DNA from: Planctomycetota bacterium
Lineage (GTDB): Bacteria > Planctomycetota > UBA1135
Direction: 5' to 3'
DNA: 64,000 nt
Assembly: GCA_004295085.1 (NCBI GenBank)
Contig: SHNF01000006.1
Coordinates: forward strand, 93,818 to 157,817
Shown: piece after piece, positions 9,327-64,000 of the stretch
Numbering within the stretch: the first letter of the stretch is position 1
Layout: every line of letters starts with the position of its first letter
The notes under the pieces: model-generated
The model's database searches: none
What the model was told of the DNA's origin: nothing
The model's input: the letters and a program-made list of their open reading frames with translations, nothing else
Translations under genes and position numbers: made by a program

Positions 9327-9403
9327 GTCCCCGTAGCTCAGAAGGATAGAGCGGCGGTTTCCTAAACCGCAGGTCGCGCGTTCGACTCGCGCCGGGGACA
9401 CCA
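9327..9403 (+). tRNA. tRNA-Arg (anticodon CCT)
   Basis: Cloverleaf folded by hand. Acceptor stem GTCCCCG/CGGGGAC, D arm GCTC/GAGC, anticodon stem GCGGT/ACCGC with loop TTCCTAA, variable loop AGGTC, T arm GCGCG/CGCGC with loop TTCGACT. Discriminator A and an encoded CCA follow. Confidence 0.9.
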
Positions 9404-10297: not shown

Positions 10298-10348
10298 GGC
10301 GGGGCTTCCGGAGATTCTCCGGATTCTCGCTCGTCCTCGACCTCACCG

Positions 10349-46007: not shown

Positions 46008-46825
46008 CCTCGTCCCTGGCGACTCCGGCCATCTCCTATCGCCTGCTCCGCCGCGCCGTCGGAGCCTACGGCGACGAAGTCCTCGCCCATCTCGGCTCCC
46101 TGTTCCTGCGCGCCGCGGTCCTGGCGCGGATGCACATCCGCGACGGCAACATCTACGAGCCGGACCCCAGCCTGATCGAGCCGGACGCACAGCGCCTCCG
46201 CGTGCGCCTGCGCTCCCTGTGGCGGGAGGCGCTCGAGCTTCCAGCCGGTGCCGGCTCCGTCTTCCGCGAGCTGCAGCACGCCGAACTCTCCCCATCCGCC
46301 GCCTCCGGTCGCCTCGACTGGAACGACGCCCTGAGTATGGCGCGCATGTCCGTCGCCCTGCGCCCCAACGACCCACACGCCCGCATCGCCCTCTTCATCA
46401 ACCTCTTCCGAAACAGCAACTTGCGCGAAGCGGCAGCTCAGTTGTCCGCCATCCGTATGCCGGAACAGTATGGTCCTGTACTGCACGCACGCGTCCTTTG
46501 GAATCGCGCGGGACCCGTGGAATATGAAGGCGATACCAAGAGTGCAGTAGCGTTGCTTCGACGCTGCCTGGAACTTGATCCGACGAATCCGTCCTACCGC
46601 AGAGACTACCTGGCCTATGCGTTGGCTTCCGGACACGAGGAAACCGCCCTACGTGCGCTGTCATGTGTGAGGTCTGTATCCGGTCCGCATGTGATCACTG
46701 AAGACGTGAAGAGCTTTCTCCAGCGCGAGCAAGCGCCGGTCACCCGGATGCTGGGTCGCAATCAAGATCTGATGCGCTCTCTGAATCGTGCGCTGGACCG
46801 CCGACCCGCGGCGGCAATGATCTGA
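46004..46825 (+). CDS. TPR-like helical-repeat protein, translationally coupled to the sigma-like gene
   Basis: A GTG start overlaps the sigma-like stop (GTGA at 46004-46007). The C-terminal ALLRRCLELDPTNPSYRRDYLAYALASGHEETALRAL is TPR-like. No TM segment seen. Confidence 0.5.
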   Translation: MTSSLATPAISYRLLRRAVGAYGDEVLAHLGSLFLRAAVLARMHIRDGNIYEPDPSLIEPDAQRLRVRLRSLWREALELPAGAGSVFRELQHAELSPSAASGRLDWNDALSMARMSVALRPNDPHARIALFINLFRNSNLREAAAQLSAIRMPEQYGPVLHARVLWNRAGPVEYEGDTKSAVALLRRCLELDPTNPSYRRDYLAYALASGHEETALRALSCVRSVSGPHVITEDVKSFLQREQAPVTRMLGRNQDLMRSLNRALDRRPAAAMI

Positions 46826-47038
46826 ATGAGAGACCACCTGAGCTGCTCAAGCTACATCGCAGCTCGGTTTATCTCAATTCTGTTGGCTATCTTGATCTGC
46901 CTCACTATCTGTGTACAGCCATTAGTCGCGAGCGGGGGGTCCGGAAATGGAGGCAATGGTGGCACAAACGGCACATCTTCAAGCACCATTCGCCCGGCGG
47001 GTCATGAGACACCTGTAACCAGTGGCGGGGGCGGCTAG
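46826..47038 (+). CDS. 70-aa mini-protein: hydrophobic N-terminal helix plus Gly/Asn/Ser/Thr-rich tail
   Basis: The ATG directly abuts the upstream TGA (TGAATG). Sequence: MRDHLSCSSYIAARFISILLAILICLTICVQPLVASGGSGNGGNGGTNGTSSSTIRPAGHETPVTSGGGG. It lies at the GC minimum of the window. Confidence 0.4.
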   Translation: MRDHLSCSSYIAARFISILLAILICLTICVQPLVASGGSGNGGNGGTNGTSSSTIRPAGHETPVTSGGGG

Positions 47039-47164
47039 CATGCGACCGTCTCGTTGTTGGTACACGTCCAATCGCGTACTGAATAATGAATGCGATGCGG
47101 CCGGCAAGCCATCGGCGCCCGAACACCTCAACTCCTTAGCACTGTCACCTAAGAGGCCTTGAGG

Positions 47165-50100
47165 GTGCGCAGAACGACACTTGCGGGATTGCTGGTTGCC
47201 GTGATGGCTGTAGGATTGGTGTATCTATTCGTTTCGGTGGCGCACGATGATAATCAGCGAATACGGCAGGACGAGATCATCCCGTTGGACAGAGAGGCCT
47301 TGTCTTCGCTTAATGACCGAACCAGTCACAAAGAGGTTGCTGGCGGGGACACGAAGTCGATCGAGGAAGCACTTGTCGTGCCCTCTTCTCCAGTTGAAAC
47401 TGGCAGAGACGTGGTCACGACGGATTGGCAGCTTTTCGTCATCGATCCTGCAGGTATGCCAGTTGAGGCTGCGATGGAAGTGTGGCCCATAACACAAGAG
47501 CTGATTCAGGTGCTAGAACAAGATGCCGCTGTGGATGCAGAGATTATCAGGCATGTGATTGATGAAATGATTCTGAAAGCGGATGCTGGAAGGGTTGACT
47601 TTTCGGAGGCGGTGAGTTCGGGTGAATACTTTGTCGTCGTCAAGGCTGAAGGCTTCGCGACTGTAGGCCAATTTCTTGAGGTTCCTCTCTCGGAGGAGAA
47701 GAAGCGCTGCGTCATGCAACCAACAAAACCTTTGACAGTCAAAGTCGAAGATGCAGGAGGAAGCCCAATAACGAACGTAGCAGTAGTCTTTGTTAACAAC
47801 AATCTTGATCCTGGTTTTCCAGCCCGTCCATGGCGGGAGCGGTTGGAACGGCGGTTCTTCCGTGAGAAGCTGTACACAGGGGGCGATGGGATCGCAAGTC
47901 TTGCGTGGCCTCTTGAGGAGGCAATGACCGTAACAACGGCAGGCAATACCCAGTTCTCCCGAGCGTTGCTGTATGAGGCCGTGATCGGAAGCGAGAATCG
48001 TCTCGTGGTGTATCCCTCGTTTTCAGTACATGGCACAGTTCTGGCGGAGAGTGGAGACCCGGTCCCATACGCATCGGTCGCCTTGTTCGCGGCTGACGCG
48101 GACGGACAGCGAATCGGTCAAGGAGAAGCGGTTGCCGACGCGGACGGTACATACGTCATTGCGGACGGGAGCACCAGAGCAACGGCTCTGCGATGTCAAG
48201 CCTGGGCTGATGGATACGTGCCACAGCAGCGCATGGTCATCCGGCCGCAAGCGGGAGATGAGCTTCGCCTTGACTTCGTTCTTCGGAAGGGTGTGGCGGT
48301 CGAGTGCCTGCTTCAGGATCCAAATGGGTCATCTCTCGACGGAATACGCGTGCGCTTCGAGCGTGGAGAATCGGACTGGTTGCCCGGCCGGTACGAGAGT
48401 GATGTTAGCGGCAAATTCACGAGCGCGCCGAATCTCGTGCCGGCAACGCGGTACCTGATGCTCTGGTTGAGCGGTGACGTATGGCTCGAGAAGGTGCCGG
48501 TGGAAGTGCCGGCGGAGGAGCCGTATGCGGTGCGGGTGGTGGTGCCGCCGATGGCACGTATCCGCAAGGTTGTCGTGGAGGGCGGTCCGGAGTCCGATGT
48601 CGAGGTGGAGTTCTACTCCAGGGCCGGGATCTCCTGGGACTGGTTCCGCTGGGACGCTGCGCAGCCAAGCCCCTGGGTGCCCGCCGGCCCGGGTGTGCTG
48701 CGGGCGACGCTTCCGTCGGGACAGGTCCTGAGCTCGTCGCTGGACCTCGCCTCCGGTTGGAACGAGGAGATCCGGCTGGGTGCGGCCAAGGCGCGCCTGT
48801 CGTTCGAGCTGCCGCGGATGGACGGCATCGAGGAGTGGGAGGTGTCGCTCGAGCCCGAGCTGGGCGGAACGCCGTTGGTGCGGGCGCAGCGCCCCGGACG
48901 GCACAGTGTCACGGTCGCGGAGGGCTCCTATTATCTGAAGGCTGCCGCGGGAGGCAGCGAGCGGCTGTACCTGGGACCGTTCCGCGTGCCCGCGGAAGGC
49001 CTCGATCTCGGAACTCTCCTCCCGGAAGCCTTGTGCGCGGTTTCCGGCCGCGTGCTGGATGAGGAAGGGCGCCCGTGGCCCGGGATGCTGGTCAAGGCGG
49101 TGCGCGCCGACGGGATGGTGACGCCCGAGGTCTATACGGACAAGGCGGGAAAGTACGCGCTCACCGATCTGTCTGCGGGCAGGTACCGCGTGTGCATCCG
49201 GCCGTGGCAGTCCTGTCTCATCCGCTATCCGGACGTGGAGACCTGGATCATGCTGTCACCCGGCGAGACCAGGGCGGGCGTGGACTTCTCCATGGCGGCG
49301 GAAGGCAAGCTCCAGGGAGAGCTGCGCCCGGCGCCTGAGCGCTTGTGGAACGCGTTCCGCCTTGCGCACGGGCACGTGGAGGTGATGATCGTTTCCGCAC
49401 GCGGAGCCTTTGTCCTGGGGGTGCCGCAGGTGCGGGAAACGGTCGGCGCGTTCAGCACCGGGCGCAACGAGTACCTCCTGGTTGCCGAGGAAGTGGATGC
49501 GGAGGCAACCAGTGTGCTGCTCGATCGAGGAGCGGTGCACAGCAAGGAGGTGCGATTCGTGGATCCTGCCGGGCAGCCGCTGGGCATGCTGAGATGCCGC
49601 ATGGAGATGAACGGACAGCTGCTGCCGGAGGAGGTGTATACGGACGGAGATGGGAAGGCGCGGCTGGGCGTCGGCGGCAGCGGAGATCCCGTGGTGGTGG
49701 TGGACGGCGCCGGTGTTGCGGGTGAGCGCGTGCCGTTCGCGAGCCTTCCGGAGCGCGGCGAGTACCGCGTCGCGGTCGCCGGCCAGAAAACCCTGGTGAA
49801 GCTGACCGATCGCACCGGTCTCCCGCTCCCGGGCGCGTCGTTGTCCTGTGCGCAGGCCGGCGTCCTGGGAGTGACCGACGGCAGGGGGGAATGCGTGCTG
49901 CACGGTCTGCGCCAGGATTCAGTCTTGCGTGCGGAGAAGGCGGGCTTCTGGGCGGCGGAGACACGGTTGCAGGCGAGCAACGTGCTGGTCCTGCGCCGCC
50001 CGTCGGCGCGCCTGGAGGTGCATGTGCCCGCGGGACTGGCCGCGGAGCGCGTGGCAGTGGAGCCGGAATTCGACCTCGGTTACGCGTGGTCGCCGGAAAT

Positions 50101-50269
50101 GGCCGCGGTGGCCGGCGAATCCGGGCTGTGGGCCGCCGATGGACTTCCGGAAGGCAGCTACCAGGTGAGCGCCTGGAACGCGCGCGGCGAGATCGTCACT
50201 GCGCCAGCGGGTGTGGAATGCGGTCCCGGAGCACCTGTGCGGCTGCGCCTGCTCCCGAAGCAGCCATAG
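47165..50269 (+). CDS. N-terminally membrane-anchored giant protein with multiple CarboxypepD_reg-like beta-sandwich repeats
   Basis: TM helix TLAGLLVAVMAVGLVYLFVSV. Repeats include VHGTVLAESGDPVPYASVALFAADADGQRIGQGEAVADADGTYVI and VSGRVLDEEGRPWPGMLVKAVRADG...TDKAGKYALTDLSAGRYRV. The GTG at 47165 has AAGAGG 8 nt upstream (the track starts at the TTG at 47159). Confidence 0.65.
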   Translation: MRRTTLAGLLVAVMAVGLVYLFVSVAHDDNQRIRQDEIIPLDREALSSLNDRTSHKEVAGGDTKSIEEALVVPSSPVETGRDVVTTDWQLFVIDPAGMPVEAAMEVWPITQELIQVLEQDAAVDAEIIRHVIDEMILKADAGRVDFSEAVSSGEYFVVVKAEGFATVGQFLEVPLSEEKKRCVMQPTKPLTVKVEDAGGSPITNVAVVFVNNNLDPGFPARPWRERLERRFFREKLYTGGDGIASLAWPLEEAMTVTTAGNTQFSRALLYEAVIGSENRLVVYPSFSVHGTVLAESGDPVPYASVALFAADADGQRIGQGEAVADADGTYVIADGSTRATALRCQAWADGYVPQQRMVIRPQAGDELRLDFVLRKGVAVECLLQDPNGSSLDGIRVRFERGESDWLPGRYESDVSGKFTSAPNLVPATRYLMLWLSGDVWLEKVPVEVPAEEPYAVRVVVPPMARIRKVVVEGGPESDVEVEFYSRAGISWDWFRWDAAQPSPWVPAGPGVLRATLPSGQVLSSSLDLASGWNEEIRLGAAKARLSFELPRMDGIEEWEVSLEPELGGTPLVRAQRPGRHSVTVAEGSYYLKAAAGGSERLYLGPFRVPAEGLDLGTLLPEALCAVSGRVLDEEGRPWPGMLVKAVRADGMVTPEVYTDKAGKYALTDLSAGRYRVCIRPWQSCLIRYPDVETWIMLSPGETRAGVDFSMAAEGKLQGELRPAPERLWNAFRLAHGHVEVMIVSARGAFVLGVPQVRETVGAFSTGRNEYLLVAEEVDAEATSVLLDRGAVHSKEVRFVDPAGQPLGMLRCRMEMNGQLLPEEVYTDGDGKARLGVGGSGDPVVVVDGAGVAGERVPFASLPERGEYRVAVAGQKTLVKLTDRTGLPLPGASLSCAQAGVLGVTDGRGECVLHGLRQDSVLRAEKAGFWAAETRLQASNVLVLRRPSARLEVHVPAGLAAERVAVEPEFDLGYAWSPEMAAVAGESGLWAADGLPEGSYQVSAWNARGEIVTAPAGVECGPGAPVRLRLLPKQP

Positions 50270-51511: not shown

Positions 51512-53086
51512 ATGGCGCAGTCACGGGCGTCCGCGAGCGCGAGCCGGCGCAACACCGCCGGACGCGAGATCCCGGCCGAGATCAACGGCCGGGCGGTGAT
51601 CCCGTTCGAGGGGGTGGGTGCGCGCCGGCCGCAAGGGCGCAAGGCCGCGCCGCCGATCCGAAGCTGCGCCGACTATCCGGAAGACGGGAACAAGGTCGTT
51701 GCAAGCTTGAAGGAAGCGTTGCGGCGCGCGGGGCTGCGCGACGGCATGACGCTCAGCACGCACCATCACTTCCGCAACGGCGACCTGGTGGGGAACATGC
51801 TGTTCCTGGCGGCCGCCGAGCTGGGCGTCAAGGACCTGCGCTGGTTCCCCAGCGCCTCCTTTCCCTGCCACGCGCCGCTGATCCCGCTGCTCGACAGCGG
51901 CGTCATCCACCACATCGAGGGCTCGATGAACGGGCCGCTCGGCGACTACTGCTCGCAAGGGAAGATGCGGGGGCTCGGGGTGCTGCGCAGCCATGGCGGG
52001 CGCTGGCAGGCCATCCAGGACGGAGAAGTGCATATCGACATTGCGGTGCTGGCGGCGCCGACGGCCGATTCCTTCGGCAATGCCACCGGCGACCGCGGGC
52101 CGAGCGCCTGCGGGCTGCTGGGCTTCGGCCTGGCCGACTCGCTCTACGCCGACCACGTGATCGTGGTCACCGACAACCTGGTGCCCTTTCCCTGCCTCCC
52201 CTGGCAGATCCAGGGCAACAACGTGGACCAGGTGGTGGTCGTGGACCAGGTCGGCATCCCGGAGAAGATCGTGAGCGGCACCACCGTGGTCACGAAGTCG
52301 CCGGACCGCCTGCTCATCGCCGAGCACGTGGCGCGCTTCGTGCGCGACGCCGGCATCCTGCGCCCGGGATGGTCGTTCCAGTCCGGCGCGGGCGGGATCC
52401 CGCTGGCCTTCGGCAACTTCGTGCGCGACATGATGATGGAGTCGGGAATCAAGGCGCGCTTCATCCGCGGCGGCAGCAACCTGTACCTGGTGAAGATGCT
52501 GGAAGAGGGACTGACCGACTACATCCTGGACGGGCAGACCTTCGACCTCGAGGGCGTGCGCAGCATGCGCGAGAACCCGGGGCACCAGGACACCAGCCCC
52601 TTCACCTCCTACAACTACCACGGCAAGGGCAACTTCGCCTCGCTGGTGGACGTGGTTCTGCTCGGCGCAACCGAGGTGGACACCGACTTCAACGCCAACG
52701 TGGTCACGCACAGCGACGGCCGCCTCCTGCACGGCATCGGCGGCTGGCAGAACTGCCTGTTCGGCAAGTGCACCGTGCTGGCGCTGCCGAGCGTCCGCGA
52801 CCGCATCCCCGTGATCGTGGATCGCGTCACCACCCTGTGCGGCCCCGGCGAGCTGGTCGACGTCGTCGCCACTGAGCACGGCCTCTGCATCAACCCGCGC
52901 CGCGGCGACCTGCTGGAGGCGGCGCGCAACACCGACGTGCCGATCCTGGACATCCACGAGCTCAAGCGCAAGGTGGACCGGCTCTGCGGGGGCCCGCCGG
53001 ACAAGCCCAGGCTCGGCGACGAGTTCGTGGCGGCCATCCAGTGGGTGGACGGCACCACCATCGACGGTGTCCGCCGCGTGCTCTAG
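51512..53086 (+). CDS. citF: Citrate lyase alpha subunit (citrate CoA-transferase)
   Basis: GREIPAEINGRAVIPFEG..., LKEALRRAGLRDGMTLSTHHHFRNGD, ...VLRSHGGR..., ...FQSGAGGI... and ...VTHSDGRLLHGIGG... are collinear with CitF. Confidence 0.85.
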   Translation: MAQSRASASASRRNTAGREIPAEINGRAVIPFEGVGARRPQGRKAAPPIRSCADYPEDGNKVVASLKEALRRAGLRDGMTLSTHHHFRNGDLVGNMLFLAAAELGVKDLRWFPSASFPCHAPLIPLLDSGVIHHIEGSMNGPLGDYCSQGKMRGLGVLRSHGGRWQAIQDGEVHIDIAVLAAPTADSFGNATGDRGPSACGLLGFGLADSLYADHVIVVTDNLVPFPCLPWQIQGNNVDQVVVVDQVGIPEKIVSGTTVVTKSPDRLLIAEHVARFVRDAGILRPGWSFQSGAGGIPLAFGNFVRDMMMESGIKARFIRGGSNLYLVKMLEEGLTDYILDGQTFDLEGVRSMRENPGHQDTSPFTSYNYHGKGNFASLVDVVLLGATEVDTDFNANVVTHSDGRLLHGIGGWQNCLFGKCTVLALPSVRDRIPVIVDRVTTLCGPGELVDVVATEHGLCINPRRGDLLEAARNTDVPILDIHELKRKVDRLCGGPPDKPRLGDEFVAAIQWVDGTTIDGVRRVL

Positions 53087-54330
53087 CCACCCAAGCTGGA
53101 ATTGCCCTCCGCCGGTCCTGCGTGGCCAAGGGCTTCCCCTTTCTTCATCAGCGCCTCGCGCGTGGCAGCGGTCCGCTCGGCCACGATCACGTGCGCTCGA
53201 GCGAAAGCGCGCAGCCGGAGCTCTTGAAGCTCCTTGTCCTCCTTCTGTTCGCCTCGCGCAATGCTCTCGCGGAGCGACTTTTCCTCGGCGGCATACCGCT
53301 CCAACTGCTCGCGGCCCTGCGCCTTGGCCCGGGCCACCGCCGTGTTGTAGGCCTGAACCGCCTGGTCGTTCCGCTGGGCTTGCGCCAAGGCATCGCCCAG
53401 CAGTTCCCAGTAGGCGTGGGCCGGCTGCGCACAGCCTGGGCAAGGTGCCTGGCCCGTCTCGGTACACGCCGAGCAAGGCTGGACAAACTTGCGCCTGCCC
53501 TGACAAAGGGGGCAAGTCACTTCGCCGCTGGTGCAGTTCGCACAGTCGATCGTTCCCTTGCGCTTGCACTGCTTGCATGGCTCGGAAGTCGTCTGAGTGA
53601 ATATGGGTATCGTCCTGCCGGAGCCCCCGCAGTCCCTGCACCCCACTTTCCCGGTGCCCTGGCATGGGCTGCAATCCGACCTGCCGCGGACGTTGCAGTT
53701 GTGACACTGGATCTCTTTCTTGCCCTGCGCATCACAGCGCGCGCAAGGCACGGCACCCTTACCATCGCACACTCCACAGGTGGAAGCCGACGGCAGGACA
53801 CCGGCCGCGGGTCCCTTTAGCTGCCCACTCGACGCGCAGTAGTCGCAGGGCCCGGAAATGCGTCCGTTGCCCTTGCACGCTGCACACTGCGTGCTGCCGA
53901 CGCGGTCGCAGCGCACGCACGGTACGAGTGCATCTCCCTTGCACGAGAGGCATTGGTTCGCATTGTGCGTGTTTTCGATCATCTGTCCGAAGGGGCCGCA
54001 AACGTGGCACATCCGATAGCCTCGTTTCGGCGATCCGAGAAAATAGATCCCGCTGCGGGATTGCTTCGCTTTCATGTCCTCGTAGATGAGCTCAAGGAGC
54101 ACATCGTCGACAAGCCTGTCCGTGGATCGAAACCAGGTCTCTGCGCCACAGTACGGGCAATCCAGCCTTCCCTTGCCGTCGCATTCCCGGCATGCCGTCG
54201 ACGCCTTGCCGTCGCCTTCGCATCTCGGACAAGGGAAGGTCTCCAGCTGCTCAGCAGTGAGCAACCCGGGAGAATCGGCTCCTTGCTGGAAAACCGGCGA
54301 GCAACCCAGGAACAACGCAGTGAGAATCAT
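53083..54330 (-). CDS. Lipoprotein with an array of 18 CxxC (DnaJ-type CxxCxGxG-like) motifs and a coiled-coil/TPR-like tail
   Basis: Lipobox MILTALFLGCS. Motifs include CPRCEGDG, CRECDGKG, CAACKGNG, CGVCDGKG, CSPCQGTG and CRDCGGSG, 18 CxxC in total. The C-terminal roughly 110 aa are helical and rich in Ala/Glu/Arg/Lys. Confidence 0.65.
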   Translation of the reverse strand: MILTALFLGCSPVFQQGADSPGLLTAEQLETFPCPRCEGDGKASTACRECDGKGRLDCPYCGAETWFRSTDRLVDDVLLELIYEDMKAKQSRSGIYFLGSPKRGYRMCHVCGPFGQMIENTHNANQCLSCKGDALVPCVRCDRVGSTQCAACKGNGRISGPCDYCASSGQLKGPAAGVLPSASTCGVCDGKGAVPCARCDAQGKKEIQCHNCNVRGRSDCSPCQGTGKVGCRDCGGSGRTIPIFTQTTSEPCKQCKRKGTIDCANCTSGEVTCPLCQGRRKFVQPCSACTETGQAPCPGCAQPAHAYWELLGDALAQAQRNDQAVQAYNTAVARAKAQGREQLERYAAEEKSLRESIARGEQKEDKELQELRLRAFARAHVIVAERTAATREALMKKGEALGHAGPAEGNSSLGG

Positions 54331-54562: not shown

Positions 54563-56245
54563 ATGAAACAACTCGGCTGGCTCTTGCTCGCTGTGCTTCC
54601 AGGTTGCGTCGCCGGCAGCCTGAACGAGCGGGCCTTCTATCCGCAGGCCGAGTTCCGGCTGGTGCCGGAAGACCTGAATCTCGAGGCCGAGGCCTTCGTG
54701 GTGCCCGTGGAGGGCGCGCTGCTGCACGCCTGGCGCTTCCGCGCGCCGGAGAGCGGCGGCGATGTCCTGGTGGTCTGCGGCGGCAACTCGGACAACAAGG
54801 AGCTGTTCCTGCCGCTGGCGCGCGGCGTGGTGGACGCGGGGCTGGACGTGGTGCTCTTCGACGCCCGCGGCTTCGGACTGAGCACCGGCGAGCCGGACCT
54901 GTGGTCGCTGGTGCCGGACGGCGCTGCGGTGCTGCAGCGAGTGTGCGCCGATCCGGCCACGCGCCACGTCGCCGTCTTCGGCGTCTCCCTCGGCTCGCCG
55001 GTGGCCCTGGCGGTGGCGGACCGCATGGCGGAGCGGATCGACGCCGTGGTGGTCGAGAGTCTGCTCGTGCCGCGGCACGCGCTCGCGCAGGAGATCGGCG
55101 GCTTCGCGGCCTTCCTGACCGGCTGGGCCGTGATCCCGGCCGGCTTCGACGTTGCGGACCATGCGCGCGAGCTGGAGCAGCCGGTCCTCTTCGTGCACGG
55201 CGCCGAGGACGAGCTGACGGAGCTGGAGCCGGCGGCGCAGGTCTTCGCCGCCGCGCGCACCGCGCGGGCTCCGCGCGCCATCTGGATCGCGGCGGACGCC
55301 GGACACGCGCCCGGCATCGCCGGGTTGTACGGGGGGGAGTACCTGGCGCAACTGATGCGCTTCCTGGAAGCCGCGCTGCGCGGCGCTCCCGACCACGCGC
55401 GGGTCGAAGTCGACTGGAACGCGCCGCAGGAGAGCGCGGTGGTCGAGCTCGGTCCCGACGCCGTCGCGCACACGCCGGTCGAGATCACCCTGGTCCGCGA
55501 GCTCGCCGGGCCGCTGAGCGCGCGCGTGTTCGCCGACCCCGGGCACGCCACGGCTGTCCCTTTCCCGGGCGCCGGCGCGGTCATCGGCGCCTTTGGCAAC
55601 GTGCCCGCCGGCGAGGTGGCGAAGCGCGCCGACGGCGGCTGGGAGCGCGCGGCTCCGGAGCTGGAAGCGGAGCGCGCCTGCCTGGCGCTGGAGGAATGGG
55701 CCTACGAGCGGCTCGGCTACGGCAAGCTGCTGCGCGTCGGCGACGTGCGCGTTTTCTACCGCTTCGGGGAGGAGCCGGCGCCGGAGCAGCTGGCCGCCGC
55801 CTGCGCGGAGGCGCGCGCGCGCCTGGAGGAGACGGAAGAGGGCGGGCTGCCACCCGACGTTCAGATGGCGCGGGCCGAGCTCTGGCGCGCGCTGGCCCGC
55901 CGCTGCGTCGAGCTCGGCGACGAGTCCGGCGCCGGTGCCGCGATCGAGCGGGCACTCGCCCTGTTCCCCGCCGATCCCTTCGCGGCCGTGCGCTACGGCG
56001 ATGCCAGCTGGCAGCTCGGCGTCCGGATGGACGATCTCGCCGCCGACGTGGAGGCGGTGGCCGGGCTCATCAGAGACGCCGACCGCCGCGCCGAGCTGCA
56101 GCGGATGGCGGAAGGTTGGCGCGAGGTCCAGCAGGAGCGCGACCTCTGGCTGGAGGACTGGCTGGCGCGCCAGCGCGCCGAGCGCGACCGGCTGGCCACC
56201 GCGGCGGGAGCCTCAGTCTCCGAAGCGGAAGGTCGTCCGCAGTAG
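54563..56245 (+). CDS. Lipoprotein alpha/beta-hydrolase with C-terminal helical domain
   Basis: Lipobox LLLAVLPGC, GxSxG nucleophile elbow GVSLGS, ...FVHGAEDE..., ...DAGHA..., then a roughly 250-aa helical extension. Confidence 0.7.
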   Translation: MKQLGWLLLAVLPGCVAGSLNERAFYPQAEFRLVPEDLNLEAEAFVVPVEGALLHAWRFRAPESGGDVLVVCGGNSDNKELFLPLARGVVDAGLDVVLFDARGFGLSTGEPDLWSLVPDGAAVLQRVCADPATRHVAVFGVSLGSPVALAVADRMAERIDAVVVESLLVPRHALAQEIGGFAAFLTGWAVIPAGFDVADHARELEQPVLFVHGAEDELTELEPAAQVFAAARTARAPRAIWIAADAGHAPGIAGLYGGEYLAQLMRFLEAALRGAPDHARVEVDWNAPQESAVVELGPDAVAHTPVEITLVRELAGPLSARVFADPGHATAVPFPGAGAVIGAFGNVPAGEVAKRADGGWERAAPELEAERACLALEEWAYERLGYGKLLRVGDVRVFYRFGEEPAPEQLAAACAEARARLEETEEGGLPPDVQMARAELWRALARRCVELGDESGAGAAIERALALFPADPFAAVRYGDASWQLGVRMDDLAADVEAVAGLIRDADRRAELQRMAEGWREVQQERDLWLEDWLARQRAERDRLATAAGASVSEAEGRPQ

Positions 56246-56923
56246 TTCGAGCGCGCGTCCGGTTTCGGCACTCTGGCCGGGGTAGGGCGGCTGCGGTACG
56301 CCCAACTGGACGAGCAGGGGCTCGATGTGTGTCTGCCCTGCCGGCTCGAAGGTGCTCTGGATCATCAGCAGCCAGCCGCTTCCGCTCTGCTCGAAGCCGT
56401 ACACCTCCTGGACCATCTCGGCCTCCCAGCCGTGAAGGCCGCCGATGTGCTGGTCGAAGGCGCGGCCAGTGAGCGTCCGCCCGCCCAGTGTGATCGCCGA
56501 CTCGCGGACGTTGCGCGCGCCGGAGCCCTCCGCGGCCTGGACGTAGCGCTCGACCACCTCGGCCGGCTCCTCCGCGTGGCGCTGCAGGTGGATCATCGTG
56601 GTCTGGCCGGTGACCGAGCACCATCCCTCGCGGCTGCCGAGCGCGCCCAGGAAGGCGAACTCGCGCGGGTACTCGAAGGCGAAGGCGCCGGAGACGCGCA
56701 GCATCCGGGTAGGAAGCGCCTCGAGCAGGTAGGTCGGCCCCTCCGGCCGCGGCCGGAGCGCGTGCCCTTCCTCGAGCTCGATCACCTCCTCGCCGATCGT
56801 CAGCCTGAAGCGGAGCGGAGGCTCTGCGGTCGTGGCTTCAGGAGCAGGGTCCTGGAGCACCAGGAAGGGCGCGAGAGCCAGCAGTCGCAGGACCTGCATG
56901 ATGGCATGCAAACGACGCGCCAT
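56213..56923 (-). CDS. Secreted hypothetical protein
   Basis: Signal-like MQVLRLLALAPFLVLQ. Ordinary composition. Convergent 33-nt overlap with the hydrolase gene. Confidence 0.45.
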   Translation of the reverse strand: MARRLHAIMQVLRLLALAPFLVLQDPAPEATTAEPPLRFRLTIGEEVIELEEGHALRPRPEGPTYLLEALPTRMLRVSGAFAFEYPREFAFLGALGSREGWCSVTGQTTMIHLQRHAEEPAEVVERYVQAAEGSGARNVRESAITLGGRTLTGRAFDQHIGGLHGWEAEMVQEVYGFEQSGSGWLLMIQSTFEPAGQTHIEPLLVQLGVPQPPYPGQSAETGRALELLRTTFRFGD

Positions 56924-57003: not shown

Positions 57004-58272
57004 TCAGCCTTCCTTGCGCATACGGCCGGCTTCCTTCTTCACCTGCGCCATCAGCTTGCCGATCAGCTGGTCGCGGCGCTCGTACAGACGGTAGCCTTCG
57101 GGCGGGCGCAGATAGCCGCGCGCCTCCGGGTGTCGCTGGAACAGCTTCTTCTCGCCCAGCTCGGCGGCCAGGCGCTCGAAGCGGGCGCGCTTGTCGAGCA
57201 GCGCCTTCACCACGAACGGCATCACGACCGAGTAATCGGCGTGCATGCTCTCGGTGGTCCGCCGGTAGTGGTCCTTGTCCACCTTGCCCCAGGTGACGGC
57301 CTCGGCCGGCGGGCAGCTGCTGAGTGAGCCGTCGTGCACCGGCGCGGTCGTGATCTGGACGTCGTAGAGGTAGCCGGAGATGTCGCGGAAGCCGAAGACC
57401 TGGCTGAGGGCGGGCTCCGGCTGCAGGTTGAAGTTCTTGGGCACGCCGCCGCCGAGGATCAAGGTGCCGAGCGCCTTGGTCTCGCTCTCGAACAGACCCC
57501 AGCGGTGGTAGGCGCAGGACTCGAAGACCTCAAGGTTCAGGTCCAGCTCGAAGGCAAAAGGGTCGCCGGCGGCCTCGCGCAGGGCCCACAGGCGCACCGA
57601 GTTCAGGAAGATCGAGCCGTCGGCGGGCGCGCCGACGAACACCGGGATCGCTTTGCGCGCGCACAGCGCCATCAGCCCCTCGCGCACGCCGCGCTCCTGC
57701 TCCAGTTGCGCGTAGTGGCGCCCCAGCAGGTGGCGGAACTCGGTGCCGCTCATCTTGCGCTGGAACTCAGGAAGGCGCAGAAGCCGGCGAATGAACTTGT
57801 CCTGCTCCAGCAGCAGGTCCTCGGGAAAGCCGATGTCCGTCACCCGGATGACGGCTTCGTCGCGCAAGGCGCCGTCGTCGCCGTGGATCGGCACTTCCCG
57901 GAAGGCCTCCGCCGGCTTCTCGCTGAGCGCGCGGTGACCGTCGTGATAGCAGACCGCGTCGGTGGTGCTGAGCAGCATGAACCAGCCGGTGTCGAGCAGC
58001 GGGTTCAGCCAGGCGTAGTGCTGCCCGGAGACGGTGACCGGCCCGGAGACGGCCAGGGTCATGGGCAGCCCCTTGCCGACGGCCTCGTCCAGCAGGGTCC
58101 AGACGCGCCGCAGGTAGGCCCCGCCGAAGGCCGGCAGGCTGTCGCGGAAGAGCTGCTCGAGCTCGTCCGCCGCGGTCACCGGGCGGTTCACCAGCGCCGG
58201 CTGGCGATGGAAGCCGCGACCCTCGGGCCGCTCGTGGCCGCCGGAGCGCTGATCCTGCCGCGTGGGAGCCAT
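57004..58272 (-). CDS. Deoxyhypusine synthase-family (DHS-like) protein
   Basis: ...MTLAVSGPV..., ...LSTTDAVCYHD..., ...ILGGGVPKNF... and ...EAVTWGKV... are collinear with the deoxyhypusine/homospermidine synthase-like family. Confidence 0.7.
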   Translation of the reverse strand: MAPTRQDQRSGGHERPEGRGFHRQPALVNRPVTAADELEQLFRDSLPAFGGAYLRRVWTLLDEAVGKGLPMTLAVSGPVTVSGQHYAWLNPLLDTGWFMLLSTTDAVCYHDGHRALSEKPAEAFREVPIHGDDGALRDEAVIRVTDIGFPEDLLLEQDKFIRRLLRLPEFQRKMSGTEFRHLLGRHYAQLEQERGVREGLMALCARKAIPVFVGAPADGSIFLNSVRLWALREAAGDPFAFELDLNLEVFESCAYHRWGLFESETKALGTLILGGGVPKNFNLQPEPALSQVFGFRDISGYLYDVQITTAPVHDGSLSSCPPAEAVTWGKVDKDHYRRTTESMHADYSVVMPFVVKALLDKRARFERLAAELGEKKLFQRHPEARGYLRPPEGYRLYERRDQLIGKLMAQVKKEAGRMRKEG

Positions 58273-58304
58273 GGGGCCGGGGATTGTAGGCCCGGCGCCG
58301 CGGG

Positions 58305-60122
58305 CTACACGCGGAAGCGCCCGCGCGGGCGGCGGCGCAGCGCTGCGGCGCTCTCGGGCGCGTGCGCGCGGAGCTGAGCACGCTGCAGGCGCCGCGCGCG
58401 CTCGCCCTTGGGCACGAACAGGGGCTTCAGATCGGGGCCCAGCCCGGTGTAGTACATCGCCGTCGCCAGGGTGGTCGGCGTCGGCATGAAATCCTGCACC
58501 TGCTGCAGCCGGTAGCGGCGCTCCTCCAGCCAGTCCGCCTGGCTATCCATCTTCTCCGGCGTCGAGCCCGGATGGCTGCTGATGAAATAGGGGATCAGGT
58601 ACTGCTCCTTCCCGGCCTGCTTCGACTCCGCCTCGAAGGAGAGGCGGAACTGCTCGTACTCCTCGATCGGCGGCTTCTTCATCAGCCGCAGCACTTCCGG
58701 ATCCGTGTGCTCGGGCGCCACGCTGAGCTGGCCGCCGACGTGGTGCGCCGCCAGCTCGCGGATGTACTCGGGCGAACGGTTGGCGAGGTCGTAGCGCACC
58801 CCCGAGGCCACGAAGACCTTCTTGATGCCTTCCTTGCGGCGCAGCCGGCGCAGGAGGTCGATCTGCGGCGCGTGGTCCGTGTCGAGCAGCTTGCAGACCT
58901 TCGGCCAGACGCAGGAGCTGCGCTTGCAGATCTTCTCCACCTCGGGCTTGCTGCAGGCCATCCGGTACATGTTGGCGGTGGGCCCGCCGAGGTCGCTGAT
59001 GACGCCGGTGAAGCCCGGCAGCTTCTGGATCTGCTCGACCTCGCGCAGCACCGACTCCGGGCTGCGCGACACCACCTTGCGTCCCTGGTGCAGCGTGATG
59101 GCGCAAAACGTGCAGCCGCCGAAGCAGCCGCGCGTGTTGGCCATGCTGAAGCGGATCATCTCCCAGGCCGGGATGCCCTCGCGGTAGTCCGGGTGCGGCA
59201 TCCGGGTGTAGGGGAGCTCGTGCACGCGGTCGAACTGCGCCGTGCTCATGGGCTCGGCCGGCGGGTAGATCCAGACCGCGCGCTCGCCATGGCGCTGGAC
59301 GAGGAGGGGCGAGTTGAGCGGGTTCGACTCCTTCTCGATCAGGAGCGCAGCCCGCATGAACGCGGCCTTGTCGGCGCTGACCTCCTCGAAGGAAGGCAGC
59401 TCGATGTGCGGCACCGGCAGGGCCGTGGCCGAAGGCTTCACGACCGCTGTGCCGCGGATGCCGTCCAGGGTCGGGTGCAGACACTTCGGATCCGCTCCGG
59501 CGCGCACCCAGCCGTGGATCCGCCGCGCGATCTCCTCGGTCGTGCCTTCCCCGTTGCCGTGCACCAGGATGTCGGCCTTGGCGTCCAGCAGCCAGCTCTT
59601 GCGCAGCTTGTCCGACCAGTAGTCGTAGTGGGCGAAGCGGCGCAGCGAGGCTTCGACGCCGCCGATCACGAGCGGCAGGCCCGGAAAGGCCTCGCGCACG
59701 CGGTTGGCGTACACCAGGACCGCCCGGTCGGGGCGCAGGCCGCCCTTGCCTCCCGGCGAGTACATGTCGAAGTTGCGGAAGCGCCGCCGCGCCGTGTAGT
59801 TGCTGACCATGGAGTCCATGGCTCCGGCGGTGATGCCGGCGAACAGGCGCGGGCGCCCGAACTCCCGGAAGGGATCGGCGGACTGCCAGTCCGGCTGGGC
59901 CAGGATGCTGACGCGATGACCCTCGGCCTCCAGGATCCGTCCCAGCATGGCCATGCCGAAGCTCGGGTGGTCGATGTAGGCGTCGCCGGTCACCAGCAGG
60001 ACGTCGATCGCGTCCCAACCACGCGCCGCCATGTCAGCCCGGGATACCGGCAGGAACAGCCTGCGATCGGCGGCCGGCGGCGGCGGGGAGACCTTGCGTT
60101 GCGACGGCATGGCGGGGCTCAA
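58305..60122 (-). CDS. ygiQ: YgiQ-family (UPF0313) radical SAM protein
   Basis: The N-terminus [36 protein letters not shown] matches the YgiQ N-terminal domain. The radical-SAM cluster region reads [12 protein letters not shown]. Confidence 0.8.
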
Positions 60123-60132
60123 CCCCGCGATT

Positions 60133-61308
60133 CTACGGCAGGAAGCTCTTGGGGTCCTTGAGCTTCTTCGGCAGGTATTCCTCGATCACGAAGTTGAGGC
60201 CCCACTTGGCGAAGGCCTGCTGCTCGGCGCGCACGCCCATCTTCATCAACTGCTGCAGCGCCTTGATCCAGCGCGGCTGGGCCTGGAAGAACGGGTCGTT
60301 CTTGATGGCGTCCTTGGCGCGCTTGACGTCCACGTCCAGCAGCGGGTGGGTGGCGTCCTGCAGGCCGAAATCCAGGATGTCCTGCGGGGTCACGCCCAGG
60401 AAGGTGGCGGTGGGCACGCAGAAGCGCGCGTTGACGTGCGCCGCCAGGCCGGAGCCCACCTTGAGCGTGCGGTAGATGTTGCAGATGCCGTAGGGGTCGC
60501 AGTCCACGAACGCGTACACCGGGAGCCGGAGCTGGTCGGCGACGCGGCGCACGAAGCGGCGCGTGGCGCGCGTGGGCACGCCGCCGGTCTCCACCAGGAT
60601 GCAGTTGGCGGTGCGCCACCAGCGGTGGTGGTTGAGGCGCTGGAACATGCCGCCGGTCTCGATGGCCAGCACGAAGCGGGCGCTGGTCTCCAGCCCCAGG
60701 TGGTCCACCGACGCCGGAATGGTGTAGGCGCCCGAGCCCATGCTGGCGCAGTCGGTGCGCAGCAGCTCGCCGGTCTCGGGATCGCGGTCGATGACGACCA
60801 GCGGTCCCACCACCGAGCCGCCGTGCTCCTCCGGGATGAAGCGCAGCTGCTCGCGGGTGACGTCGTGCAGCGCGAACATGCCCTCGATGTCGTCCAGCAC
60901 CGTGTCGGACTCGCGCTGCTCGTTGAACTTGGCCTCGGCCCAGTTCTTGGACACGTAATAGGCTTCCCGCTTGGTGGCGATGTCGTCCTTGGACACCATG
61001 TCCTTGGCCAGGGCCATGAGGCGCAGGGTCTGGGCGAAGGTCTTGACCGAGTTCACGTCCAGGGTGCGGGTCTTCTCGGCCTCGCCCATCTCGAAGAAGC
61101 CGACCTCGCGGTCGTAGGTCACGTTCTTGAGGTTGCGCTGCGGCATGGTCAGGCGCGGCAGCCGGCTCCTCTGGATGGTGTCGTAGACCCCGCGCGCCAC
61201 GGTCTCGATCTTGTCCAGCGCCACCTTGGCCAGCTGCGCGCTGTTCAGGTCCACCTTGGCTCCGCTGCCGCGCTTGCGGCCAGCCGCGTCGTCCTTGCGT
61301 GCCGCCAT
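60133..61308 (-). CDS. top6A: Type IIB DNA topoisomerase VI subunit A (Spo11/Top6A)
   Basis: Catalytic tyrosine context TKREAYYVS. The Toprim motifs are [10 protein letters not shown] (Glu) and AFVDCDPYG (DxD). Confidence 0.85.
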
Positions 61309-61309
61309 G

Positions 61310-62932
61310 TCAGACGCTCCGGCTCTTCTCCATGACCCCGCGCAGCTTCTCCACCGCCTCGTCGCGCTGGTCGCTGCTCAGGCCGAGGATCTCCTGCAGG
61401 CCGATGCCGACGTGCGGGAGGTACTTGTCGATGTAGCCGCGCTTCTGGTACTCGCTGGCGATGCGCCGGCCCTTGCGCACGTACGCGCCGAGCTTGCGCC
61501 CGGCGTCCATGAGGCCCAGGCGCAGCTCGCGGAGGATCTCCGGGTAGCCGGCGATCGCCTCCTTGGACTCGCTCGTGAACGGCACCCACACGCTGGCCAT
61601 GTGCACCAGCAGCAGCGCCGGGCCGACCGGCAGCGCGCCGCGCGGCTGCGCCAGTCCGTAGTTGCGCCAGCTCACGCCGATCACGGCCTTGGTGACGGCG
61701 CAGGCCGACTGCTGGTACAGCAGGGGCACGCGGTTGGCGAAGCGCAGCAGCCGCACCGGCTCGTCCGCGGCCGCGAGCAGCTCGTCGCTGTCGGCGGCCG
61801 GCTTCTTCTTCCTGCGCGCCAGGATGCGCCCGGTGGCCTCCTCCAGCTCCAGCTCGGGGCCGCCGGGCTTGCCCCAGGCGATGCCGACCTCGATCTGGAA
61901 GGGGTTGCCGCGGTACACGGCGGGCGGGCGCGTGCTCACCGCGTAGAACTCGGCGTCCACCTCCTTCTTCAGCCCTTCCAGGATCCGCTCCTCGCCGATG
62001 GGGGAGATGCAGTCCGTGGGCGGCGCGCTGATCTTGACCTGCTGGATGGCGCGGTACAGCTGGTCCGCCTCCTCGCGCGCGATGCGCGTCGGATAGCTGC
62101 GCTCGCCCAGCTTGGCGGCGCGGATGATCTCGTCGGCGACCTTGGAGCCGACCCGGCAGAACTCCTCCTGCAGGAAGCCGCTGAGCGTGCGGCTGCGCGT
62201 GTCGTGCAGCATCTTGATGAGCTGGCCCAGCTCCACGCCGTAGGGGTGCGGCCGGATCTCCGTCGAAGGCCGGGGAAGCTGGGTCGTGGCCCGCTCGAAC
62301 AGCCTGGTCTCGCCTTCTGGCGTCACGTACTCGATGCGGCAGTGGGGGTTGGCCACCGCGGTCTGCTTCAAGTAGTCGTCCACCGAGCGCGGGCCCTTCT
62401 GGTAGGTGCCTTCGAGCTCGATCTCGACGCGCGTGCCCTGCGGCTTGTTCCACTCCTGGACCTGGTCGCTGTCCACCGCCGTGATCGGGCGGTTCTTGGT
62501 CAGGTCCATGTGGATCTCCATGCGGTGGGCCGGCCCCTTGCGCGTCTTGCTCACGATGCGCAGGCCCTTGCCGGTGGTCATCTGCCCGTACATGCCGGCC
62601 GCGCTGATGCCGATGCCCTGCTGCCCGCGCGCCTGGCGCAGCCGGTGGAACTTGGAGCCGTACAGCAGCTGGCCGAAGATCCGCGGGATCTGATCCTTGA
62701 CGATGCCGGGGCCGTTGTCCTCCACGGCGATGCGGAAGCGGTCCTCCGCGAGCTGCTGGACCTCCACCCGGAGGTCGGGCGCGATCCCGGCTTCCTCGCA
62801 CGCGTCCAGCGAGTTGTCCACGGCCTCCTTGATGGCGGTGAGCAGGGCCTTGCGCGGATTGTCGAAGCCCAGCAGGTGGCGGTTCTTGGCGAAGAACTCG
62901 GAGACCGAGATCTCCTTCTGCTGCCGCCCCAT
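61310..62932 (-). CDS. top6B: Type IIB DNA topoisomerase VI subunit B (GHKL ATPase)
   Basis: Bergerat-fold boxes EAVDNSLDA, EDNGPGI and GQQGIGIS, plus a transducer domain. Its stop lies 1 nt before the top6A start. An alternative GTG start lies at 62965. Confidence 0.85.
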   Translation of the reverse strand: MGRQQKEISVSEFFAKNRHLLGFDNPRKALLTAIKEAVDNSLDACEEAGIAPDLRVEVQQLAEDRFRIAVEDNGPGIVKDQIPRIFGQLLYGSKFHRLRQARGQQGIGISAAGMYGQMTTGKGLRIVSKTRKGPAHRMEIHMDLTKNRPITAVDSDQVQEWNKPQGTRVEIELEGTYQKGPRSVDDYLKQTAVANPHCRIEYVTPEGETRLFERATTQLPRPSTEIRPHPYGVELGQLIKMLHDTRSRTLSGFLQEEFCRVGSKVADEIIRAAKLGERSYPTRIAREEADQLYRAIQQVKISAPPTDCISPIGEERILEGLKKEVDAEFYAVSTRPPAVYRGNPFQIEVGIAWGKPGGPELELEEATGRILARRKKKPAADSDELLAAADEPVRLLRFANRVPLLYQQSACAVTKAVIGVSWRNYGLAQPRGALPVGPALLLVHMASVWVPFTSESKEAIAGYPEILRELRLGLMDAGRKLGAYVRKGRRIASEYQKRGYIDKYLPHVGIGLQEILGLSSDQRDEAVEKLRGVMEKSRSV

Positions 62933-63082
62933 CTCTTCGGCGGTGAGTGCTCTGGTTGCGGCCACGTCGTGTTCGCAGGGAAACGGAAGCGGCGAATCTT
63001 CCCGTCCTGGCCCGGGAAATGCCAGCGCACGGCCCGCTAAACTGCGCCGGATGGCGCGTGCCCGGCACAAGGGGACAGGACC

Positions 63083-64000
63083 GTGACCGTGGTGCTTGCG
63101 GCCCTGTGCGCCGTGTTCCCGGCCGCGTGGCTCGCCGCCGGGCAGGATCCCGAGGTCCCGCCGGCGGCGCTGGAGCCGGTCCGGGAGCCGGCGGCGGAGC
63201 CTGCGTCCGAGGCTGCGCCGCAGGAGCTGGCGCCGGTGGTGCGCTACCGCCTGGACGTGGCGCTGACGCCGGACGCGGACGAGGTGTACCGCGTGATCCG
63301 CGGCAGCTCGACCGTCACCTGGCGCAACCCCACCGGCGCGGCCACGGCCGAGTTGTACTGGCACGTCTACAACAACGCCTGGGCCGGGCGCGACTCGCTG
63401 TGGCTGCGCGAGGCGCGCCGCCTGGGCGACGAACGGCTGCCCCGGGCCTGGGGCGGCACCGAGATCACGCGCGTGCGCCGCCGCTCCGACACGGACGCGG
63501 CCGAGGGGGTGGACCTGCCCTGGACCTTCGTGCCGCATCCGGACGCGCCCGGCGACCGCACGGTGCTGCAGGTGCTGCTGCCCGAGGCGGTGCCGCCGGG
63601 CGGAACGGTGACGGTGGAGATGGGGTTCGTGGCCACGCTCCCGCCCGCGTTCCGGCGCAGCGGCGTGGGCGGCGATTACGTGCACGCCGCCCAGTGGTTC
63701 CCCAAGCTGGGGGTGTTCGAGGAGCGCGACGGCGTCGCGGCCTGGAACTGCGAGCCGTACCACCTTCTGACCGAGTTCTACTCCGACTTCGGCGACTACG
63801 AGCTGACCCTGGTGCTGCCCAATCGCTACAAGGGGCGGATCGCCGCCTCCGGCAGCATGGTGGGCGATCCCGTGGAGACGCGCGAGGGCGACGTCACCTA
63901 CCACTTCGCCGCGCAGCGCGTGCACGACTTCGCCTGGACCGTGGACGCGGACTTCCTGGTGGAGCGCCGGCCGTTCCTGCCGGCGGAGGTCGCGGAGCGC
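63083..64000 (+). CDS. Secreted M1-family metallopeptidase-like protein, N-terminal part (3' end outside window)
   Basis: The frame is open to the window end from the GTG at 63083, with signal VTVVLAALCAVFPAAWLAAG. ...WFPKLGVFE...WNCEPYHLLTEFYSDFGDYELTLVLP...HDFAW resembles the N-terminal beta domain of M1 peptidases. The HEXXH site would lie beyond the window. Confidence 0.45.
   Translation, partial: MTVVLAALCAVFPAAWLAAGQDPEVPPAALEPVREPAAEPASEAAPQELAPVVRYRLDVALTPDADEVYRVIRGSSTVTWRNPTGAATAELYWHVYNNAWAGRDSLWLREARRLGDERLPRAWGGTEITRVRRRSDTDAAEGVDLPWTFVPHPDAPGDRTVLQVLLPEAVPPGGTVTVEMGFVATLPPAFRRSGVGGDYVHAAQWFPKLGVFEERDGVAAWNCEPYHLLTEFYSDFGDYELTLVLPNRYKGRIAASGSMVGDPVETREGDVTYHFAAQRVHDFAWTVDADFLVERRPFLPAEVAER

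Follow-up and report, generated by a model that had tools for sequence, protein, structure and literature searches.

Why the two genes of a DNA topoisomerase VI (topo VI) should lie tightly packed with a gene for a YgiQ-family radical SAM protein and a gene of the deoxyhypusine synthase (DHS) family in a Planctomycetota genome is the question raised by this locus. The four genes could be a functional unit, a block that was acquired together, or neighbours with independent roles. The window, a 64,000-nucleotide stretch of contig SHNF01000006.1 (positions below are those of the window), contains the following features:

61310-62965, minus strand: top6B, DNA topoisomerase VI subunit B, 551 aa from a GTG at 62965 (NF003218, PF02518, PF09239)
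60133-61308, minus strand: top6A, DNA topoisomerase VI subunit A, 391 aa (PF04406, PF20768, PF21180)
58305-60122, minus strand: ygiQ, YgiQ-family radical SAM protein, 605 aa from a TTG (TIGR03904, PF08497, PF04055, PF11842)
57004-58272, minus strand: DHS-family gene, closest to bacterial SpeY, 422 aa (PF01916)
56213-56923, minus strand: Hyp236, a hypothetical ORF of 236 aa, from the gene call on identical contigs
62966-63088, no strand: intergenic region between top6B and the divergent M1-peptidase-like gene, the presumed promoter region (direct reading)
63089-64000, plus strand: 5' part of the M1-peptidase-like gene, divergent to top6B, with a 781-aa product and a faint PF01433 match on identical contigs
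51512-53086, plus strand: citF, citrate lyase alpha subunit (PF04223, 423 bits), the synteny anchor at the opposite end of the neighbourhood

The ORF listing and direct reading of the junctions reproduced exactly the four co-directional minus-strand genes with gaps of 1, 10 and 32 nt given in the initial annotation, and profile searches and alignments confirmed its gene identities and motif claims. The top6B/top6A junction reads TGA-C-ATG (1 nt), the top6A/ygiQ junction consists of TAG, 10 nt and TTG (a gap of 22 nt if the ATG of ygiQ is used), and the ygiQ/DHS junction consists of TAG, 32 nt and ATG. The ygiQ start according to NCBI and other gene calls is the ATG at 60110 (601 aa), and gene callers on identical contigs start top6B at the ATG at 62932 (540 aa). 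We favour the GTG start of top6B, because similarity to M. mazei Top6B already sets in before this first ATG. The identical four-gene arrangement was found on at least eight contigs, and the three that were displayed stem from separate runs (ERR3230152, SRR8466247 and ERR6015539), so the arrangement is not an assembly artefact. On the same strand, 80 nt downstream of the DHS gene, lies Hyp236, which is possibly the last gene of the transcription unit; it has no Pfam or NCBIfam match, and in the fetched loci no homologs were found except on identical contigs.

Judged from the sequence, transcription of the genes as a single unit is plausible in the window's species, given the gaps of 1-32 nt and the lack of a terminator-like site on the coding strand. 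The scan that found none on this strand within the cluster is uninformative in a planctomycete of 70% GC; its two terminator-like matches both lie on the non-coding strand and are fewer than in shuffled sequences. A search for sigma-70-like sites in the presumed promoter region gave no match, which says little for Planctomycetota. The very tight spacing and the missing internal terminator-like site speak for a true functional operon of four genes, in which YgiQ and the DHS homolog would be tied mechanistically to topo VI, for instance by modifying a DNA-associated factor or by supplying polyamines locally. Dense co-directional packing is ordinary in bacterial genomes and by itself not beyond chance.

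Top6B scored 656 bits against NF003218 (cutoff 274) and 519 bits against TIGR01052 (cutoff 381) and matched PDB 2q2e_B with E=5e-159, with the N-box (EAVDNSLDA), G1 (DNGPGI), G2 (GQQGIGIS) and the switch Lys (in SESKEAI) conserved. It lacks the C-terminal domain of the M. mazei type and has, relative to M. mazei, an insert of 34 aa (residues 367-400) in the transducer region, a probable counterpart of the helical bundle described in Pirellula staleyi. Top6A passed every Pfam domain cutoff (PF04406, 53 bits; PF21180, 185 bits) and matched the M. jannaschii structure 1d3y_A with E=2e-106 (359 bits). In the alignment to 1d3y the catalytic Tyr Y118 (M. jannaschii Y103) and R114 are conserved, and the Toprim motifs read AIETGG (E217) and DCDPYG (D269 and D271). 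Against the NCBIfam equivalogs, which we take to be built for archaeal subgroups, Top6A stayed below the cutoff in six of six models (best NF003337, 442.9 bits versus 675). The topo VI holoenzyme is an A2B2 tetramer, and the top6B-top6A pair is kept in nearly all of the 77 species-representative top6A loci. Identity of Top6A to the other species representatives is 57-81%, and to the close relative L001 it is 92%. As its domains and motifs indicate, top6BA is a complete PVC-type topo VI of a kind already described. The presence of such enzymes in PVC bacteria has been published, with the explanation that they stand in for a topo IV that these bacteria lack (PMC11302465), and we agree with the earlier statement that topo VI is sporadic in bacteria. 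Topo VI genes are also present in MAGs of Latescibacterota and Gemmatimonadota, phyla that the 2024 survey does not name.

If the four genes form a module, their association should recur. On the top6 side, 55 of the 77 loci were informative, with at least 4 kb downstream of top6A; ygiQ lay within 10 kb of top6A in two of them (L008 and L023), a count that may be too low where, as in the MAG PNC 17 described below, ygiQ lies beyond the 10-kb flanks, and a DHS gene near top6A was found in 0/55. On the DHS side, neither ygiQ nor top6 was found at any of 80 metagenome loci with 62-73% identity, nor at L003 and L005. Absence of recurrence, named beforehand as the outcome that would count against the top6-ygiQ-DHS association, was essentially what we found.

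Relatives that keep the gene order have 0, 1, 2 or about 10 unrelated genes (up to ~13 kb) between top6A and ygiQ. In L008, the two are 1.8 kb apart with one 484-aa ORF between them; L001 has two spacer genes, of 162 and 233 aa; and in PNC 17 (L007 and L165, one contig) a spacer of ~13 kb contains a 10-gene T2SS/pilus-like cluster. Hyp236 was also considered as a relocated copy of the 233-aa or the 162-aa spacer gene of L001, and this was rejected for lack of similarity. Since the spacer varies among relatives that keep the order, the window is best seen as a compacted version of an inherited neighbourhood. Proximity of top6 and ygiQ, 0-13 kb apart, is seen in a few lineages, which belong to two distinct branches of an NJ tree of Top6A, and in E. 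coli ygiQ follows parC on one strand with two genes in between (parC-plsC-ftsP-ygiQ); both observations speak for a mechanistic link. They are outweighed by the minimal recurrence, by the T2SS/pilus-like cluster that separates top6A from ygiQ in PNC 17, by the lack of any topoisomerase near ygiQ in L166, L167 (Lignipirellula) and L168 (Acidiferrobacterales), and by the fact that topo VI functions without YgiQ- or DHS-type partners in archaea and in vitro. We consider a functional operon centred on topo VI very improbable, and the link of top6 with ygiQ or the DHS-like gene suggested by the initial annotation found no support. The close packing of top6BA, ygiQ and the DHS gene is peculiar to one lineage and does not mark a conserved functional module. 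A recurrent link between YgiQ and type II topoisomerases in general was likewise tried and rejected, no topoisomerase lying within 10 kb of ygiQ in L166-L168.

A narrower association is visible between ygiQ and the DHS gene. In the window, in L001/L002 and in PNC 17 (L165), the DHS gene comes directly after ygiQ, 11-42 nt away, while the top6A-ygiQ spacer differs greatly. The DHS proteins of these three species-level lineages are 67-86% identical, and a pair common to all three has persisted for some time. These observations, together with the lack of a firm function for either protein here, are what would be seen if ygiQ and the DHS-family gene were a two-gene functional pair in the clade, with top6BA a mere neighbour; the radical-SAM enzyme could, for example, act on a polyamine or aminobutylated product of the DHS homolog, or on the protein that the DHS homolog targets. 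The 80 DHS loci without ygiQ, and L003 and L005, argue against such a pair, as does the occurrence of ygiQ without a DHS gene in L008, L023, L166, L167, L168 and E. coli. Moreover, the pair occurs in three closely related genomes, and shared ancestry therefore explains the adjacency. We regard the functional pair as unlikely. The more specific proposal of a real two-enzyme pathway, in which YgiQ would act on a polyamine or aminobutylated substrate supplied by a divergent SpeY-like enzyme, is in our estimate quite unlikely; if true, it would give the widespread YgiQ family its first clue to a function.

The YgiQ protein itself matched TIGR03904 over its full length (783 bits, cutoff 462), with PF08497 (400 bits), PF04055 (51 bits) and PF11842 (41 bits), and contains the motif CFGGCTFC (Cx3Cx2C) at residue 333. 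A protein 100% identical to it (P0121) is named YgiQ family protein in a Planctomycetota MAG. Our search of the literature on YgiQ, UPF0313 and DUF3362 found no functional assignment, and the statement that YgiQ (UPF0313) has no established function still stands.

The product of the DHS-family gene matched PF01916 with 122.6 bits (cutoff 27), and K330 in EAVTWGKV, the catalytic Lys, aligns to the WGK of the archaeal DHS 7cmc. The best NCBIfam model was NF001980, "homospermidine biosynthesis protein", with 180.7 bits versus 450 (E=4e-53). Against NF002699 the protein reached 75.2 bits (cutoff 500), and against the deoxyhypusine synthase models NF002006 (the best of these) and TIGR00321 it reached 88.6 bits versus 434 and 72 versus 304, respectively. 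The product of the DHS homolog is uncertain, because the protein falls below every equivalog cutoff and its gene lacks neighbours of the speY type. tblastn with E. coli SpeA and SpeB, the only two probes used, gave no match in the window or in ~170 loci, although partner genes may be located in another part of the genome. Clustering of the neighbourhoods of ~85 DHS loci, which is noisy from spurious high-GC ORFs, found no neighbour in more than 20 loci. In ~13 loci, a gene for a dTDP-sugar-isomerase-like cupin lies upstream of the DHS gene. The DHS-family protein has relatives at 68% identity or above in more than 120 Planctomycetota clusters, and stand-alone DHS/SpeY-like genes form a large, highly conserved Planctomycetota clade outside all curated equivalogs. 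The earlier description of bacterial DHS-like proteins as poorly characterised is out of date, since such homologs now go by the name SpeY, an enzyme that joins two agmatine molecules to give G44G, a precursor of homospermidine (PMC13625781). In P. staleyi, the main polyamine is sym-homospermidine (PMC3035237).

Acquisition of the four genes together as a horizontally transferred block, the other origin proposed for the cluster, draws on the view that bacterial topo VI (PMC11302465) and bacterial DHS homologs (PMC13625781) both derive ultimately from archaea. The composition of the locus argues against it: the four genes have a GC content of 0.68-0.70 and a GC3 of 0.93-0.97, the same as the flanking citF and a hydrolase gene, and the GC content of the window is uniform at the cluster, so nothing points to recent co-transfer. 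Near the cluster there is neither a tRNA gene nor another known RNA family, and the sole tRNA of the window is at 9327. The flanking genes are syntenic in relatives, with an M1-peptidase-like homolog upstream of top6B in ~31 top6 loci and citF downstream of ygiQ or the DHS gene in L001, L008 and L165; citF also lies near the DHS gene in L107, L108, L122 and L157. Each of the four genes is widespread in Planctomycetota, with abundant relatives of 60-90% identity in different contexts, which indicates that they are old, separate residents inherited vertically. We consider arrival as one block extremely improbable, and the suggestion of co-transfer does not fit these data.

In our view, the cluster consists with high probability of three units with independent functions that were brought side by side by compaction in one high-GC Planctomycetota lineage. 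The first unit, top6B-top6A, encodes an ATP-dependent type IIB topo VI of the PVC type, most likely a decatenase and relaxase that replaces topo IV. The second, ygiQ, contributes a widespread radical-SAM enzyme, and the third, the DHS-family gene, would specify an NAD-dependent aminobutyl transferase related to SpeY that most likely makes a homospermidine precursor. In the ancestor of this small clade, the genes would have been arranged as M1-peptidase(-) / top6B-top6A ... ygiQ-DHS ... citF(-), and top6A would have been separated from ygiQ by other genes. Loss of these spacer genes in the window's species, which we favour over insertion elsewhere, would have brought the four (perhaps five) genes to abut, and a promoter upstream of top6B probably reads them as one transcript.

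The finding is ordinary overall and matters little beyond the locus, which is one more example of the described PVC-type bacterial topo VI, a presumed stand-in for topo IV. Its neighbours, ygiQ and the DHS-family gene, do not make up a conserved accessory module. The lesson is a negative one, in that a DNA-related role should not be given to YgiQ or the DHS homolog here through guilt by association.

Comparison with known systems places each unit separately. With SpeY, the DHS-family protein shares the DS fold (PF01916) and the conserved catalytic Lys; its nearest curated model is the bacterial NF001980 and not an archaeal or eukaryotic DHS model, and the host phylum has species with sym-homospermidine as the main polyamine. 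It differs in having extra residues at both termini (422 aa versus a 350-position profile), and whereas characterised speY genes usually cluster with genes for arginine decarboxylase or agmatinase, the DHS gene here is without such neighbours (~85 loci). The YgiQ protein has the Radical_SAM_N, radical SAM core and DUF3362 architecture of YgiQ/UPF0313 (E. coli YgiQ, b4469), but at ~600 aa, with a short C-terminal DUF3362 match, it is shorter than most relatives in the family (650-750 aa). The topoisomerase resembles most closely the PVC/Pirellulales-type topo VI (PMC11302465), with which it shares adjacent top6B and top6A genes, a B subunit with GHKL, H2TH-region and transducer, an A subunit with WHD, Toprim and all catalytic residues, and the absence of a C-terminal Ig domain of the M. 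mazei type. Its Top6A is closest to the Methanococcales enzyme (1d3y), which corresponds to one of the two bacterial clusters in that study (PMC11302465). The differences lie in the host, which is an uncultured high-GC Planctomycetota lineage, and in the unusual presence of ygiQ and the DHS gene downstream.

The genes top6B, top6A, ygiQ and a gene of the deoxyhypusine synthase (DHS) family (the DS gene) are packed in one row on the minus strand. Their coordinates, taken from the ORF listing and from gene calls on identical contigs, are presented together with those of a fifth ORF in the row and of the single RNA gene found anywhere in the window.

Genes of the cluster and the RNA gene of the window
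61310-62965, minus strand, top6B
60133-61308, minus strand, top6A
58305-60122, minus strand, ygiQ
57004-58272, minus strand, DS family gene
56213-56923, minus strand, hypothetical ORF of 236 aa, fifth in the row
9327-9403, plus strand, tRNA-Arg(CCT)

Direct reading of the junctions gave TGA-C-ATG (1 nt) between top6B and top6A, TAG, 10 nt and TTG between top6A and ygiQ, TAG, 32 nt and ATG between ygiQ and the DS gene, and, after the DS gene, 80 nt up to the fifth ORF, in agreement with the coordinates and gaps initially annotated for the four genes. For top6B, the start codon at 62965 is GTG, and gene callers chose the first ATG (62932) on identical contigs, yielding 540 aa; since homology to Methanosarcina mazei Top6B begins upstream of that ATG, the GTG is favoured. 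The ygiQ start annotated elsewhere is the ATG at 60110 (601 aa), which would widen the top6A-ygiQ gap to 22 nt. The five-gene arrangement recurs on at least eight contigs, three of which come from separate sequencing runs, ruling out mis-assembly. No terminator-like sites were found on the coding strand of the cluster; together with the short gaps, this makes it likely that the cluster is co-transcribed, starting upstream of top6B. Co-transcription alone would not imply a shared function.

All four gene identities were confirmed with Pfam and NCBIfam profiles, and the catalytic residues proposed by the initial annotation were present in alignments to solved structures; its description of the cluster proved accurate. 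Top6A contains all three expected Pfam domains but does not reach the cutoffs set for the archaeal-subgroup equivalogs; it retains the catalytic Tyr (Y118, within a ten-residue motif), the Toprim Glu in AIETGG, and DCDPYG. Top6B exceeds two equivalog cutoffs (NF003218, 656 bits versus 274) and retains boxes N, G1 and G2 as well as the switch Lys. It differs from M. mazei Top6B in lacking the C-terminal domain and in carrying 34 extra residues within the transducer region (residues 367-400, window 61766-61867). This insert is probably the counterpart of the helical bundle, specific to PVC bacteria, that PMC11302465 describes for Pirellula staleyi Top6B. Together, top6B and top6A code for a complete type IIB topoisomerase. 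Topo VI is known from at least 17 bacterial families, several of them Planctomycetota, and is thought to be the decatenase of its PVC bearers, since these have gyrase and lack topo IV (PMC11302465); by analogy, the enzyme of the window probably fills the same role. YgiQ scores 783 bits with TIGR03904 (cutoff 462) and carries CFGGCTFC; an identical protein is among those annotated for a Planctomycetota MAG at NCBI, and no functional assignment was found in the searchable literature.

The initial annotation proposed a functional link or co-transfer of topo VI, YgiQ and the DHS-like protein. A survey restricted to one genome per species yielded 77 top6A loci, mostly from Planctomycetota, nearly all with top6B immediately upstream. 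Among them are pairs from Latescibacterota and Gemmatimonadota MAGs (Top6A 57-60% identical; loci L062-L078, e.g. OZ244619.1, OZ242318.1, OZ244235.1 and JAYOYH010000016.1), complete chromosomes included; neither phylum is named among the 17 families of PMC11302465. At L049 (top6A 10079-11161) and L061 (10001-11092), top6B was undetected within 10 kb upstream. L061 has a multihaem cytochrome ORF upstream of top6A, whose frame is apparently split in two, and is the second top6A copy of MAG OFTM77, the other (L054) having a normal top6B.

Of the 55 top6A loci with at least 4 kb of downstream sequence, two (L008 and L023) had ygiQ nearby, 1.8 kb from top6A, and none had the DS gene. From the DS side, neither ygiQ nor top6 was found near the gene in any of 80 metagenome loci (DS 62-73% identical) or at two NCBI MAG loci, and no neighbour was conserved in more than 20 of 85 DS-clade loci. 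In Escherichia coli K-12, parC (topo IV subunit A), plsC, ftsP and ygiQ share one strand (NC_000913.3, 3158927-3165973), and ygiQ, two genes downstream of parC, resembles the top6A-ygiQ order of the window. We treated this proximity as a coincidence because it was not repeated in three distant ygiQ contexts (a 1-Mb MAG contig, Lignipirellula cremea and an Acidiferrobacterales MAG), where no topoisomerase or DS gene occurred within 10 kb of ygiQ. The initial annotation had regarded non-recurrence of ygiQ and DHS-like genes beside top6 as counting against its proposal, and this is essentially what was found; the functional link is unsupported.

A few close relatives keep the gene order, not the packing. 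L001 (Top6A 92% and DS 86% identical) reads top6B-top6A-[162 aa]-[233 aa]-ygiQ-DS. In PNC 17, the MAG of a close relative, top6A and ygiQ lie 13 kb apart on one contig, with a ten-gene secretin/T2SS-E/T2SS-F/pseudopilin cluster between them, the DS gene directly after ygiQ and citF further on; the space filled there is empty in the window. Two relatives carry such a ten-gene cluster immediately upstream of ygiQ (L165, 1054-9931; L164, 988-9906). The ygiQ-DS adjacency in three related lineages would fit a functional pair, which is a weak possibility, as the two genes are apart in all other loci surveyed. L008 has one 484-aa ORF between top6A and ygiQ, then citF, and lacks the DS gene. Near the DS gene, citF occurs in four otherwise unrelated loci. 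In a neighbour-joining tree of Top6A, the window and L001 form one branch, and L008 and L023 another, nested branch.

Upstream of top6B, about 31 of the 77 top6 loci keep a divergent M1-peptidase-like gene. In the window it occupies 63089-64000 (plus strand; 781 aa on identical contigs), and in the loci that keep it (within L007-L080) it precedes top6B by about 1 kb; nothing downstream of top6A is nearly as well conserved. The simplest reading of the cluster is an inherited neighbourhood, M1-peptidase/top6BA...ygiQ-(DS)...citF, that would have been repeatedly remodelled, leaving no spacer genes between top6A and ygiQ in the species of the window.

The cluster bears no mark of recent acquisition. 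The named relatives of all its proteins are Planctomycetota MAGs, and its four genes (GC 0.68-0.70, GC3 0.93-0.97) match citF and the neighbouring hydrolase gene in composition, leaving co-transfer unsupported. GC is about 0.70 over most of the window and falls to 0.52-0.61 at 46500-48500, across an intergenic stretch and the 5' third of a gene for a 1036-aa CarboxypepD_reg/Big_1 repeat protein (47159-50269, plus strand). Between citF and the hydrolase gene lies a gene (53083-54330, minus strand) for a 415-aa protein rich in CxxC pairs, whose matches to the DnaJ zinc-finger domain and anti-TRAP are weak and which has no confident family; no homolog was found in related loci.

The large DS/SpeY-like clade counts over 120 Planctomycetota clusters with identities of 68% or higher, the gene standing alone (window, L003, L005, L083-L162); a dTDP-sugar-isomerase-like cupin gene lies divergently upstream of it in about 13 loci. 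[quoted passage not shown] No arginine decarboxylase or agmatinase (speA/speB-like) gene was found beside the DS gene in any locus examined. The DS protein passes PF01916, and its best curated model is the bacterial 'homospermidine biosynthesis protein' NF001980 (181 bits versus a cutoff of 450), with lower scores for the deoxyhypusine synthase models. It falls under all NCBIfam equivalog cutoffs, which, with the missing decarboxylase and agmatinase neighbours, weakens a SpeY assignment. A role in the homospermidine pathway is our best guess. The protein is nevertheless nearest to the SpeY family, with which it shares the catalytic Lys, kept in EAVTWGKV in the structure alignment, and the components of the cluster are all of known kinds: a PVC-type topo VI, a YgiQ family protein and a member of the DS/SpeY superfamily.
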